A stretch of DNA of 64,000 nucleotides, taken from contig JAUVNS010000010.1 of assembly GCA_030599585.1 (NCBI GenBank), positions 32,001 to 96,000 of the forward strand, given 5' to 3'. This stretch comes from Promethearchaeota archaeon. Lineage in GTDB: Archaea; Asgardarchaeota; Lokiarchaeia; Sigyniarchaeales; SOKP01. A program made the position numbers and the translations under genes. The notes beneath the pieces are model-generated. The model was not told the DNA's origin. It did no database searches and saw only the letters and a program-made list of their open reading frames with translations. This document shows, in pieces, positions 2,144 to 6,264 of this stretch (within the stretch, counting starts at the first letter, position 1; each line of letters opens with the position of its first letter).

Positions 2144-2434
2144 CTATGTCTCTGGAACTTCAGTCAAATCTCCCCAAACTTCTATATTTCCCTCATAACC
2201 CTCAATTTTCCCATAGTTATTCAAGATAGTAGCCGCATCTGCTAGAGCTTCACCTACCTTTTCCCCGGTTACCTTAGTGAAGATCATTCCAACGATCCCT
2301 TTCTCAGAACCTGTATAAGCAAAAACAGTAGTTTCTCCAACAGAACCAGTCGGATTTTCAAGGCTTTGGAAAACTTTCGCAACTTCTTCTTGTTTATGCG
2401 AGGGATACCACCATCTCATAACAATATATACCAT
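2144..2434 (-). CDS. small hypothetical protein, paralog of 4271..4594
   Basis: SD GAGG upstream of ATG; shares (Y/F)PxxKxxEV and IEG(Y/F)xxxxEV motifs with 4271..4594. Confidence 0.7.
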   Translation of the reverse strand: MVYIVMRWWYPSHKQEEVAKVFQSLENPTGSVGETTVFAYTGSEKGIVGMIFTKVTGEKVGEALADAATILNNYGKIEGYEGNIEVWGDLTEVPET

Positions 2435-2667: not shown

Positions 2668-2791
2668 GCCTCCGTGGCTTAGGTCGGTAAAGCGTTGCCT
2701 TGGTATTCATATTAATGAACCAAACAGGCAAAGGCCGCGGGTTCAAAAGTGAGAAAATGTCTATTTTCCGCTGAAACTCCCGCCGGAGGCT
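2668..2791 (+). tRNA. tRNA-Thr(GGU) with two introns (37/38 at 2706-2725; 59/60 at 2748-2777)
   Basis: Acceptor GCCTCCG/CGGAGGC, D stem GCTT/AAGC, anticodon stem TTGCC/GGCAA with GGT at 2702-2704, T stem GCGGG/CCCGC; introns form BHB-like central helices TTGG/CCAA and TTCA/TGAA. Confidence 0.92.
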
Positions 2792-3880
2792 TAATTTTTT
2801 TCTTTTTTTTTAATCCAAGAACCATGGATTGGTATATTAATTCCCCATTTTGTGCAATATTTTTTTACTGTTTTACCAGATACACCAAATCTTTCTCCAA
2901 TTTTATATAAAGGCATAAGACTTGCCAATTCTTCAAGTTCTTGACTAGAGATTTTAAATTTTGTTCTATGTGATCCATTCCAAGCATTTTTTTTAATAGA
3001 TTCTATTCTCTCTTCTTCTGTCTTAAATCTATTTCTTTTTCTCGGAAGACTATCTTTATAATTATCTAACATCTCATTAAATAAGCAGGAACCTAATGCT
3101 AGCCTATAAGCAACACCATTGACTTCTCTTCCGTCTATTGGTCCTCCAGATCTAACAATTTCAATTTTATGGTTTATAAAAAATTTTTTATTTATTTGCT
3201 CAAGAAATATCTTACTTCCTGATGTTATTTTAGAAGTTTTTTGTGTGCCATCACCGTCAAAATAACCTAAAAGAAATGCTAATTTTAATTCTCTAGTCTT
3301 TAATTGAGGAAAATTAATGTTATTTGATTTTTCTTTACCAGGAATTAAACCATTACTAATTAGGGCTCTGATAATCTCTTTACAGCAAAAAGATATTCTG
3401 AACCTATTTTTTAAATTTTGTATATATTTTGGATTGACTCCAATATCTTTAATAAATCTGTCAATGATCCATAAATCTTTTATACCCGCATCAATACCAA
3501 CTCGATAAGGTACACCTTTATTAGTTTTAATAAATCCATCTGCAAAAAGAAATCCTAACCAGTATGCTTTATTCTTAGTATCAACTTTTTTGAAATAGTG
3601 TATGTCAATATTAGGATGATATTTAAAAATATTTTTAGATTCAATGTCTTCTTTTTTAAGTCTTAAATCATCCTTCGAAACATTTTCATTACATGGCTCA
3701 AAATCGTTTTCAAGGTTCATTTTGCTTAGAAAGGAGTCTTCATCACGAAGTATAATAATATTACTAATTAAATCACATTCTATATTATGGGGCGTTGGCT
3801 AATATTAGGATAATTTATCTAAAATATCTAGACACTCCGAATATTTTCAATAAATTGTTATGAGTTAAGCCCGGAGGCTT
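2783..3880. mobile_element. putative tRNA-targeted LAGLIDADG cassette bounded by 10-bp direct repeat CCGGAGGCTT
   Basis: CCGGAGGCTT at 2783-2792 (tRNA 3' end) recurs at 3871-3880; the only gene between the copies is a LAGLIDADG endonuclease. Confidence 0.6.
2791..3720 (-). CDS. two-motif LAGLIDADG homing endonuclease with C-terminal HTH
   Basis: YWLGFLFADG and FLLGYFDGDG motifs; C-terminal LYKIGERFGVSGKTVKKY helix-turn-helix. Confidence 0.88.
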   Translation of the reverse strand: MNLENDFEPCNENVSKDDLRLKKEDIESKNIFKYHPNIDIHYFKKVDTKNKAYWLGFLFADGFIKTNKGVPYRVGIDAGIKDLWIIDRFIKDIGVNPKYIQNLKNRFRISFCCKEIIRALISNGLIPGKEKSNNINFPQLKTRELKLAFLLGYFDGDGTQKTSKITSGSKIFLEQINKKFFINHKIEIVRSGGPIDGREVNGVAYRLALGSCLFNEMLDNYKDSLPRKRNRFKTEEERIESIKKNAWNGSHRTKFKISSQELEELASLMPLYKIGERFGVSGKTVKKYCTKWGINIPIHGSWIKKKEKN

Positions 3881-3968
3881 TCTTATTTCTTTTTACTTCT
3901 GATAAAACAAAAAACATAATAATAATTTTAAATTAGATTAATAGTTAATAATAAAATATATTTAATTT

Positions 3969-4106
3969 GCCGGTGTGGCTTAGCTGGTTATAAAACATTC
4001 GTATTAAATGTTTGTTTAATAAGCGCCAGACTCATAATCCTACTGAAAAAATGGGTCAGACTGGATGTAATCTGGAGGTTCGTGGGCTCATATCCCACCA
4101 CCGGCA
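3969..4106 (+). tRNA. tRNA-Met(CAU), elongator type, with a D-arm intron (~3991-4020) and an anticodon-loop intron (~4037-4069)
   Basis: Acceptor GCCGGTG/CACCGGC+A, anticodon stem CCAGA/TCTGG with CAT at 4033-4035, T stem GTGGG/CCCAC; hairpin-forming inserts in the D arm and anticodon loop; T loop atypical. Confidence 0.8.
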
Positions 4107-4270: not shown

Positions 4271-4594
4271 ATGGTTTTAGTTTTAACTACCACACGGTTT
4301 CCCGTAAATAAGGGAAGAGAAGTTAGCGAAAGATATATTGCAGTAGAGAAAGAATTTCCTCCTGATAGATCTTTATCGAAGGTGATTTTACGATTAGCAG
4401 CTCGAATAGATGGAGATGAAATAGAAGGCATAGGATTATCAGAAGTCAAAGAAGGCAAGTACGAAGAATTTTTAAAACGGATGATGAAGATGACATTAAA
4501 GTATGCAGATATCGAAGGATTTTCATCTAAAAGCGAAGTCTTCCTATCAGGGGTAGATGCATTACCAATGGTAGGTCTTGAGATGCCAGAATAA
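4271..4594 (+). CDS. small hypothetical protein, paralog of 2144..2434 (start revised from 4205)
   Basis: SD GAGGTGA 5 nt before ATG 4271; motifs shared with 2144..2434. Confidence 0.7.
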   Translation: MVLVLTTTRFPVNKGREVSERYIAVEKEFPPDRSLSKVILRLAARIDGDEIEGIGLSEVKEGKYEEFLKRMMKMTLKYADIEGFSSKSEVFLSGVDALPMVGLEMPE

Positions 4595-4698: not shown

Positions 4699-6264
4699 AT
4701 GGAAAGATTTATATCAAAAAAAATTTCTTCCGATGAATTATCGATATTAGATAATAACTCAGAATGGTTAGGAATTCCAAAAAGCCATTTGATGGAATGT
4801 GCTGGGTATACATTTGCTACAGAAATTATGGCTCAAGGATTATTGAAGGAAAATTCAAAAGTAGCTATTTTTTGTGGAACAGGGAATAATGGTGGAGATG
4901 GTTTTGTAGTAGCTCGACATTTATCTTCCTACGGAGTGAAAACTTTAGTAATATTAGTTGGAACACCTGATAAAATAAGAACGGAAGAAGCTCAACTTAA
5001 TTGGGACATCATCTTTAGTAATCTAACCTACTCAATTCAGATAACCTTTATTAAAGATTCGACAGACGCAGAAGTCATCAAAAAGATTATAGAAAAGGAT
5101 TTAAGCTACTCTCTAATTGTAGATGCTTTATTAGGTACAGGAATAAAAGGCCAACTGAGGGAACCAATTTCTTCCACAATAGATACGATAAACAGTATTA
5201 GAGAAAAAGAAAAAGAGCGAATTAAAATTGCTTCAATAGATGTGCCTTCAGGAGTAGATCCAGATACTGGAAAAATTCCCGATAAAGCTGTCAATACCGA
5301 TTTAGTTATTACCTTCCACAGAATTAAAAAAGGATTGAAAAAAACAGGAAAATATCAAATAATCGAAAAATCTATTGGTATTCCCCCTGAAGCGAGCATA
5401 TTTGTCGGGAAAGGCGATTTGCTATCGAACTTAAAATTAAGAACCGCCGACACACATAAGGGAGAATTCGGTAGAGTTTTAGTAATTGGTGGTTCAAAGA
5501 ATTATTCCGGAGCCCCAGCGTACGCGTCCTTAGCATGCATTCATTTCGGGTGTGACTTGGTTATTAGCTATGTTCCGGAAGTTGTCGGAGATGTCATCCG
5601 TAGTTATTCACCGGACATGATTGTACGGACGAGCCCTGGAAAATGGTTATCAACAAAAGCTTTAGAAGAAATTCTATGGTTAATAGATTGGGCAAATGCA
5701 ATTATTATAGGTCCTGGCTTAGGAACAGATCCATCAACAGAAGAGCTTTTAGTAAAAATATTAGAAGGCAATAATATTGGTGAAAAATCTTTAGTTATCG
5801 ATGCTGATGCCTTAAAACTAGTTAAACCACACCTAGACTTGATTAAAGGAAAAAAAGTTATACTTACGCCTCACGAGGGAGAACTTAAAATTATTACAGA
5901 TTCCGATTTATCTCCCTTTGATAAAATAGAAAAAAGAGGAATAGAAGTTTTTAACATAGCAAAAAAGCTGGACGTTACCTTATTAGCTAAGGGACCGTTC
6001 GACTATATAAGCAACGGGATTATGCTTAAGATAAACAAAACTGGATGCCCTGAAATGTCAATCGGGGGCACAGGCGACGTACTTGCAGGCTTATGCGCCA
6101 GTTTTTTGACAACTGGAAGCAACCCATATCAGGCTGCTTATTCTGCCGCTTTCCTCAATGGATACTTAGGAGAATATTGCAAAAAAACAATCGGCCCTAG
6201 ATTTACGGCAATGGATATGATAAATAACATTAATAACGGAATTTTGAGTTTACAAAATTATTAA
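4699..6264 (+). CDS. nnr: bifunctional NAD(P)H-hydrate epimerase/dehydratase
   Basis: YjeF_N motifs LMECAG, GTGNNGGDG, DALLGTG, DVPSG; carbohydrate-kinase-like motifs HKG, GPGLG, DADAL, LTPHEGE, GGTGDVLAG. Confidence 0.95.
   Translation: MERFISKKISSDELSILDNNSEWLGIPKSHLMECAGYTFATEIMAQGLLKENSKVAIFCGTGNNGGDGFVVARHLSSYGVKTLVILVGTPDKIRTEEAQLNWDIIFSNLTYSIQITFIKDSTDAEVIKKIIEKDLSYSLIVDALLGTGIKGQLREPISSTIDTINSIREKEKERIKIASIDVPSGVDPDTGKIPDKAVNTDLVITFHRIKKGLKKTGKYQIIEKSIGIPPEASIFVGKGDLLSNLKLRTADTHKGEFGRVLVIGGSKNYSGAPAYASLACIHFGCDLVISYVPEVVGDVIRSYSPDMIVRTSPGKWLSTKALEEILWLIDWANAIIIGPGLGTDPSTEELLVKILEGNNIGEKSLVIDADALKLVKPHLDLIKGKKVILTPHEGELKIITDSDLSPFDKIEKRGIEVFNIAKKLDVTLLAKGPFDYISNGIMLKINKTGCPEMSIGGTGDVLAGLCASFLTTGSNPYQAAYSAAFLNGYLGEYCKKTIGPRFTAMDMINNINNGILSLQNY

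Follow-up and report, generated by a model that had tools for sequence, protein, structure and literature searches.

The analysis presented here concerns a window of 64,000 nucleotides from a Promethearchaeota archaeon (contig JAUVNS010000010.1, positions 32,001 to 96,000), in which a gene for a LAGLIDADG endonuclease with a C-terminal helix-turn-helix (HTH) was found in the spacer between the genes for tRNA-Thr(GGU) and tRNA-Met(CAU). The genome of origin, referred to as G000, is a metagenome-assembled genome (MAG) of 4.85 Mb in 52 contigs; G-numbers denote genomes of its genus and L-numbers individual loci, including loci on metagenome contigs (L116, L117/L118, L119 and L121). The endonuclease gene is the sole gene of a cassette of 1,078 bp (2793-3870), is antisense to tRNA-Thr and lies flush against its end, with its stop codon (2791-2793) overlapping the tRNA discriminator base at 2791. 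The coordinates of the features are collected in Table 1.

Both tRNA genes are interrupted by two introns, those of tRNA-Met(CAU) being located in the D-loop region and after the anticodon loop. Because two introns interrupt the gene, the unspliced sequence of tRNA-Thr(GGU) is missed by ARAGORN and, at the gathering score, by Rfam; once both introns were removed in silico, ARAGORN called a tRNA-Thr(GGT). ARAGORN also reports nothing at tRNA-Met(CAU) (3969-4106). The last base pairs of the tRNA-Thr gene belong to a 10-bp sequence, CCGGAGGCTT, which occurs at 2783-2792 and again at 3871-3880, 1088 bp further on, where it lies inside a palindrome (3867-3880) and is followed by a T-rich tract. Directly behind tRNA-Thr itself, a T-rich tract encodes the lysine-rich tail of the endonuclease on the opposite strand. 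Counting both strands, the 4.85-Mb genome contains the 10-mer four times and its reversed control not at all, and two copies 1.1 kb apart are not a product of chance (roughly 5e-4). An earlier reading of the stretch, made from the sequence alone and referred to here as the sequence-only reading, had described the overlap of stop codon and discriminator base, the spacing of the repeat, the hairpin, the T-rich tract and the antisense gene, and all of these were recovered exactly as described.

Table 1. Features of the tRNA-Thr/tRNA-Met locus, with positions in the window.
Feature	Position	Strand	Basis or remark
tRNA-Thr(GGU) gene, two introns	2668..2791	+	read from sequence; exons conserved in all relatives
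tRNA-Thr 37/38 intron, 20 nt	2706-2725	+	read from sequence
tRNA-Thr T-loop 59/60 intron ("type A"), 30 nt, 14 nt from the cassette	2748..2777	+	co-inherited with the cassette
10-bp repeat, copy 1: covers tRNA positions 65-73 and one further nt; belongs to the working tRNA	2783..2792	+	
LAGLIDADG+HTH gene, 309 amino acids	2791..3720	-	open reading frame; Pfam LAGLIDADG_3
Non-coding region upstream of the gene, forming the right end of the cassette (presumed promoter)	3721..3870	-	sequence comparison
10-bp repeat, copy 2 (3871-3880), plus 19-nt native trailer, read as displaced tRNA end	3871..3899	+	
Spacer common to occupied and "long-spacer" empty alleles	3900..3968	+	
tRNA-Met(CAU), two introns; right-hand homology arm of the locus	3969..4106	+	Rfam tRNA, 41 bits

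The 309-residue protein was found to match Pfam LAGLIDADG_3 above the curated cut-off, as were all of its aligned homologues (38/38). It exhibits the single-chain, two-motif layout, with LAGLIDADG motifs at residues ~54-62 and 147-158; of the two motif aspartates, D61 is at least 90% conserved and D157 invariant among the 38 homologues. The AlphaFold2 model (predicted local distance difference test score, pLDDT, 86.8) displays a double-domain alpha-beta-beta-alpha-beta-beta-alpha fold, and its best Foldseek matches, with a probability of 1.00, are the intein endonucleases TliVMA and PI-PfuI together with I-Tsp061I, I-DmoI and I-SceI. A profile search of PDB sequences returned I-Tsp061I (2dch) at 2e-8. 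LAGLIDADG homing endonucleases cleave site-specifically at targets of 14-40 bp and leave 4-nt 3' overhangs. I-Tsp061I, I-DmoI, PI-PfuI and TliVMA, the closest solved folds or sequences, are likewise single-chain enzymes with two motifs. Nevertheless, they reside within rRNA introns or inteins, whereas the G000 enzyme is free-standing, is encoded outside its presumed host gene and bears an additional HTH, followed by the lysine-rich tail, in its last ~50 residues. Among five intact alleles (the rows of the divergent locus L120 being excluded), the ratio of non-synonymous to synonymous substitution rates (dN/dS) was 0.17-0.28, and the protein has therefore been kept working by purifying selection. 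Judging from the model and the alignments, the protein has a homing-endonuclease fold, retains both catalytic aspartates and is under purifying selection, and it is predicted to cleave DNA.

In order to compare the locus among relatives, 42 congeneric genomes were searched with its flanks and the distance from tRNA-Thr to tRNA-Met was measured. The full cassette is present in only two genomes of the genus, G000 and G027, and the empty state in about 17. The sequence-only reading had predicted how an empty allele should read, and exactly this sequence occurs, letter for letter, in G016, G005, G008 and G020. Other empty forms have a spacer of 90-93 bp (G002, G010, G030, G034 and G026) or place the two tRNAs only 7-10 bp apart (G029, G063, G012, G013, G031, G061 and G014). 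Further occupied alleles, with 71-85% protein identity, were found on the metagenome contigs (L116, L117/L118, L119 and L121). The gene is intact in G000, G027, L116 and L117 and frameshifted in L121, and remnants at the same place in G021 and G065 comprise only the last 100-170 bp of the gene. The spacer of G018 is occupied as well, by an unrelated LAGLIDADG gene of 261 amino acids. The upstream region of the cassette (3721-3870), which occurs once in the genome, is 82% identical in L116 and G027 and missing from empty alleles. The cassette is thus a clean 1.09-kb presence/absence polymorphism at one site, and the allele states observed, namely empty, intact, frameshifted and remnant, are the full set expected from the cycle of invasion, decay and loss of a homing endonuclease.

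Other variation was noted in this tRNA pair. In L074 (G064:C170), tRNA-Thr(GGU) is inverted relative to tRNA-Met and ~200 bp away from it, with the breakpoint in the same spacer. The tRNA-Thr(GGU) genes of L068, L088, L078 and L091 (in G002, G010, G030 and G034) encode CCA after the discriminator base, which the other alleles of the genus do not.

The size of the polymorphic block bears on the suggestion, also made in the sequence-only reading, that the cassette is the remnant of a larger integrated element. Such an element could have been a virus or plasmid that entered the 3' end of the tRNA gene by means of its own integrase and left the 10-bp repeats as attL and attR. The 3' ends of tRNA genes are classical integration sites in archaea, and elements integrated there are bordered by directly repeated tRNA sequence (PMC3293823); the SSV- and pNOB8-type elements, which are inserted at a tRNA gene and accompanied by a repeated tRNA end, resemble the present arrangement in this respect. 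However, those elements possess an integrase and a repeat of 30-60 bp, whereas the G000 cassette consists of a single gene without integrase, and its 10-bp repeat is far below the usual att cores. Occupied and empty alleles differ by exactly the 1.09-kb single-gene block and by nothing larger. No integrase, intein host or intron host was found in the window flanks around the cassette, just as the sequence-only reading had stated, and the insert is one open reading frame (ORF) only; an integrase is also missing from every occupied relative, and no relative has an integrase-bearing element at the tRNA-Thr/tRNA-Met site. In addition, the four other occupied alleles in which the right junction is assembled (G027, L116, L117/L118 and L121) lack the second repeat. 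We therefore reject the suggestion of a larger element and regard it as very unlikely.

With regard to the duplication itself, copy 2 of the repeat is private to G000, the four alleles just named having other sequence at the right junction. In a tree of the homologues, which was made by a quick method and used for topology only, G000 is nested among the other occupied alleles. Its gene segment is 88-90% identical to L116 and G027, but the segment 3871-3899, comprising the 10-mer and the 19-nt trailer, agrees at 29/29 nucleotides with the alleles of G008 and G016, which are empty. The following spacer (3900-3968) is 94-97% identical to G008, G016 and L116, and tRNA-Met, including its introns, matches G016 and L116 at 99-100%. 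The neighbouring protein gene (4700-6260) shows 75% identity to G016, 84% to G027 and 90% to G002 over part of its length, and no match for it was found in G008. The tRNA locus from 3900 to 4106 seems to have been exchanged recently between species. These segment identities therefore place the boundary between an "old" cassette and a "young" sequence of the empty type exactly at 3870/3871.

Given these comparisons, copy 2 is best interpreted as the tRNA end native to the recipient, displaced by the incoming cassette, and not as a duplication of the target site that the element made. The view of the sequence-only reading, in which the duplicated tRNA terminus is a feature of the element, does not hold. 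Because of the nested position of G000 and the 29/29 identity to empty alleles, a duplication that is new or refreshed in G000 is favoured over one that decayed elsewhere; in either case, the sequences indicate that an occupied and an empty allele recombined. The proposal of a selfish element at a tRNA 3' end is consequently retained in part. The homing-endonuclease cassette and the empty sites agree with it, whereas the duplicated terminus cannot be regarded as a hallmark, as it is missing in four other occupied alleles. The cassette is indeed flush against tRNA-Thr, but it lies just after the tRNA and not within it.

The exact 10-bp direct repeat flanking an insert of ~1.08 kb is also what would be left by a non-autonomous transposon-like insertion, moved in trans by a transposase, with a 10-bp target-site duplication. 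To this explanation we assign a very small probability. No terminal inverted repeats are readable at the cassette ends, and the genome contains only one copy each of the cassette, its endonuclease gene and its ends. Furthermore, the same insert occupies the same site in other lineages where the right junction is assembled and no duplication is present. Finally, copy 2 is accompanied by the 19 nt of native trailer found in empty alleles, which fits recombination and not the repair of a staggered cut.

The sharp join could in principle also have arisen during assembly, through a chimeric fusion of occupied and empty strain variants within the MAG. The contamination of 8.9% and the joining of an "old" segment to a "young" one at the junction would be compatible with such an artefact. 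Nevertheless, the two allele types share only the 10-mer at the join, which is too short to mislead an assembler, and the contig runs for more than 200 kb. An artefact is therefore extremely unlikely.

Two further loci exhibit rearranged tRNA ends. In G018 (L072, C197, minus strand ~1500-2740), a 29-nt fragment of the tRNA-Met 5' end, without intron, begins ~10 bp behind tRNA-Thr and continues directly into sequence similar to tRNA-Thr positions 61-70. Downstream of this scar lie the antisense LAGLIDADG gene (L072:1786-2571), a spacer of the long type and then tRNA-Met in complete form, its D loop interrupted by an intron. In L120 (SDBV01106426, reverse complement 535-800), an intact, divergent tRNA-Thr stands directly upstream of a decayed chimeric pseudo-tRNA, composed of the 5' end of tRNA-Met and the anticodon arm, intron-bearing T arm and 3' end of tRNA-Thr, and the pseudo-tRNA precedes a divergent copy of the cassette (63% identity). 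Both loci look like the result of a module consisting of tRNA-Thr end, gene, spacer and tRNA-Met that entered a short-spacer genome, and the sequences look as though one join was homologous and the other illegitimate or homeologous.

The association with tRNA genes was found to extend well beyond tRNA-Thr(GGU). We surveyed 70 distinct loci encoding homologues for a tRNA within 1 kb, which was present at 20/45 loci of homologues at least 38% identical and at 0/25 loci of more distant homologues; for a random gene of 0.9 kb, the background expectation is 2-5%. At least 12 tRNA contexts are represented, including Thr-GGU/Met, Val-UAC/Ser-GCU, Ser-UGA/Ser-GCU, Phe-GAA, Val-CAC, Ala-GGC and Leu-CAG. 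The convergent layout, in which the gene ends 0-200 bp past the 3' end of the tRNA, recurs at Phe, Val, Ser and Ala tRNAs. At a second site, between tRNA-Val(UAC) and tRNA-Ser(GCU), the gene is full in G018 and G029 and reduced to a 15-codon remnant in G063 (L152, C57, 1338-1562), and this site thus shows the same life cycle as the tRNA-Thr/tRNA-Met site. The expectation of the sequence-only reading that homologues should abut other tRNAs was therefore borne out. In contrast, the similar duplications that it expected there were not recovered, since none of the candidate tRNA-end duplications around homologues at other tRNAs was convincing.

Several members of the wider family deserve mention in their own right. 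The closest homologues of the G018 gene adjoin tRNA-Thr(CGU). Among the homologues of this gene, those at L097, L098 and L099 (G016:C70, G064:C140 and G010:C134) encode 491 amino acids with an acidic N-terminal extension and HTH-like repeats, and are located ~107 bp upstream of tRNA-Thr(CGU), which contains a non-canonical intron near position 26. Another, L114 (G010:C36), lies beside or inside a 16S rRNA gene, where a classical rRNA-intron endonuclease would be expected. L010, L012 and L020 (G004:C70, G016:C78 and G020:C10) are ORFs of 566 to more than 990 amino acids that end in a LAGLIDADG+HTH module, and may be inteins or fusions. As a separate observation, the tRNA pair of the window is flanked by two small ORFs in inverted orientation, at 2144-2434 (minus strand, 96 amino acids) and 4271-4594 (plus strand, 107 amino acids), which share weak mutual similarity (24% identity, pairwise E value 0.001). 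Neither has a Pfam match, and both are missing at the G027 locus.

The distribution of these genes also bears on the notion that the protein has been domesticated for a host function, for instance as a WhiA-like regulator or an RNA maturase, in which case its position beside a tRNA would be regulatory and not selfish. WhiA combines LAGLIDADG with a C-terminal HTH and is not a nuclease. The layout of the G000 protein recalls it, although WhiA appears only at rank 17 of the Foldseek matches, and purifying selection would suit a domesticated protein. However, both catalytic aspartates have been kept, most congeners lack the gene or have it in decayed or frameshifted form, and relatives of the gene are situated at many different tRNAs, others in inteins or an rRNA intron. 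Given these findings, domestication appears quite improbable.

Taken together, the evidence makes it likely that the cassette is a free-standing LAGLIDADG homing-endonuclease gene in the tRNA-Thr(GGU)/tRNA-Met spacer of Loki-type Asgard archaea, which spreads between genomes by double-strand-break repair with the tRNA genes serving as homology arms. Homing, that is, the cleavage of empty alleles, is what we infer from the sequences. The enzyme would cut alleles that lack the cassette, within the 3' part of tRNA-Thr or close to it, and in the ensuing repair the gene would be copied along with the 3' part of the donor tRNA and the T-loop intron in it. In G000, the right-hand join would have formed at position 65 of the recipient tRNA, so that the last 10 bp of this tRNA, with its trailer, came to lie beyond the cassette. 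The displaced native end would correspond to that of the fungal mitochondrial mORF elements and would not be a duplication made by a transposase or integrase. The T-rich antisense of the gene's lysine-rich tail would now serve as the trailer of tRNA-Thr.

Several observations weigh against this explanation. A break at or 5' of position 65 implies a recognition site lying almost wholly within the tRNA exons. As the occupied allele keeps these exons, self-immunity is unexplained unless the intron or the flank matters. The displaced trailer is of a type that occurs today only together with a type-B T-loop intron, which is a poor fit to an intronless recipient. The duplication may also be ancestral and merely refreshed in G000, given that weak similarity is found at the right junction of other alleles. 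Moreover, G000 and G027 have diverged to the same extent inside the cassette, where the gene is 88% and its upstream region 82% identical, as in the neighbouring gene, with 84%, and vertical descent with loss may therefore account for part of the distribution of the cassette. The mosaic flanks among relatives, which would accompany horizontal spread with co-conversion, may likewise be explained in part by vertical descent and loss. In addition, the relatives compared are not independent samples, and the 4.85-Mb genome derives from a MAG with 8.9% contamination.

The question of immunity leads to the T-loop intron. Type A of this intron is present in 8/8 alleles with a cassette or remnant, as against 2/18 cassette-free alleles. 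The 5' halves of the cassette-linked tRNA-Thr alleles are mosaic, with or without a D-loop intron and with or without an anticodon-loop intron; given this variation and the constancy of the type-A intron, intron and gene therefore appear to behave as one unit that enters several tRNA backgrounds. The T-loop intron alone also shows precise presence and absence in near-identical alleles (G034 versus G010, and G014 versus G061). These findings would be explained by collaborative homing, which extends the homing explanation and does not replace it. It is possible, though doubtful, that the enzyme cuts the intronless TpsiC arm of tRNA-Thr and that the 30-nt T-loop intron splits the site and thereby gives immunity. 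Equally tentative is the proposal that intron and gene spread as a two-part unit, with the intron sometimes spreading alone through a crossover within the 14-nt 3' exon.

Collaborative homing is favoured by the association of the cassette with the type-A intron, while the D-loop and anticodon-loop introns vary among cassette-linked alleles, and by the precise presence and absence of the intron in the two allele pairs. The G000 junction implies that the recipient was broken at position 65 or 5' of it, which is 5 nt away from the point of intron insertion. The DNA that entered G018 begins at about position 61 of tRNA-Thr, and the leftover piece of tRNA-Met is intronless whereas the restored copy has a D-loop intron. 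Precedents exist in SegB, which recognises the TpsiC arm (PMC2330249), and in two systems of collaborative or trans homing, namely F-CphI, encoded beside the intron-containing psbA of cyanophage S-PM2 (PMC6083498), and mobE, which acts with the T4 I-TevIII intron (PMC2790892). As in the present case, F-CphI and mobE are free-standing endonucleases adjoining a gene that carries an ORF-less intron in the target of the enzyme, and the two are co-inherited. In contrast, their introns are group I introns in phage protein genes, whereas the intron here would be a 30-nt bulge-helix-bulge tRNA intron spliced by the host, and the link is correlative only. On the other side, tight physical linkage alone would produce the association, and precise intron loss could mimic gain. 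Family members also lie beside several tRNAs that lack introns (Phe, Val, Ala and Ser), and the co-occurrence of the displaced trailer type with a type-B T-loop intron speaks against this extension as well.

Free-standing homing endonucleases have been well studied in phages and organelles, while the archaeal LAGLIDADG enzymes are known from rRNA introns and inteins. The kind of element described here is already known. In the fungal mitochondrial mORFs, the host gene's native end follows the endonuclease ORF and has the very sequence seen in relatives without the ORF (PMC3630166). As described for atp6 of Allomyces macrogynus and for atp6, atp9, cox2 and nad3 of Glomus, a LAGLIDADG or GIY-YIG ORF of ~1 kb brings a substitute 3' end for the host gene, leaves the native 3' end downstream and spreads by break repair, all of which parallels the reading given here of the G000 cassette (PMC3630166). 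The mORFs differ in that the host is an organelle protein gene and that tens to hundreds of base pairs are duplicated (PMC3630166), whereas in G000 a tRNA gene on an archaeal chromosome is the host, the displaced part amounts to only 10 bp and the trailer, the endonuclease gene is antisense and most alleles lack the displaced end. A native end kept downstream and identical to ORF-free relatives was found in G000 only, with related forms in G018 and L120.

A second parallel is provided by SegB of phage T4, a free-standing GIY-YIG endonuclease encoded in the T4 tRNA cluster, which recognises the TpsiC arm and spreads with the neighbouring tRNA genes (PMC2330249). Both SegB and the G000 enzyme are encoded by free-standing genes among tRNA genes, and SegB carries neighbouring tRNA markers with it, as is proposed for the G000 cassette. 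However, SegB belongs to another nuclease family and to a phage instead of a cellular chromosome, and its cleavage and homing have been demonstrated, whereas here they are inferred. The third parallel concerns the same tRNA species. Next to tRNA-Thr(GGU) of Caldiarchaeum subterraneum, an insert of 1.9 kb with one ORF of ~270 amino acids is flanked by repeats of tRNA positions 1-27; the restored tRNA-Thr has a new intron at 24/25, and the insert is polymorphic in the population (PMC3293823). Its anatomy nearly matches that of G018 (L072) and L120, although its ORF had been labelled a putative recombinase by means of a classifier and the genome contains the element more than once (PMC3293823).

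In the literature searched, no published description was found of a LAGLIDADG clade that occupies tRNA-gene flanks on Asgard archaeal chromosomes, where alleles are cleanly empty, full or decayed and the tRNAs act as portable homology arms. Such a clade explains the mosaic tRNA loci seen between species, as well as the orphan tRNA ends and pseudo-tRNAs met by annotators, and the tRNA-flank enzymes would constitute a pool of natural nucleases with long, conserved targets. In a review of 2014, the way in which non-canonical archaeal tRNA introns are gained and move was given as unknown (PMC4090602). The locus described here offers a concrete candidate for the spread of such introns in archaea, consisting of one enzyme, one 30-nt intron and defined empty alleles. 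If collaborative homing is true, it would provide a DNA-level mechanism for the gain and movement of non-canonical archaeal tRNA introns.

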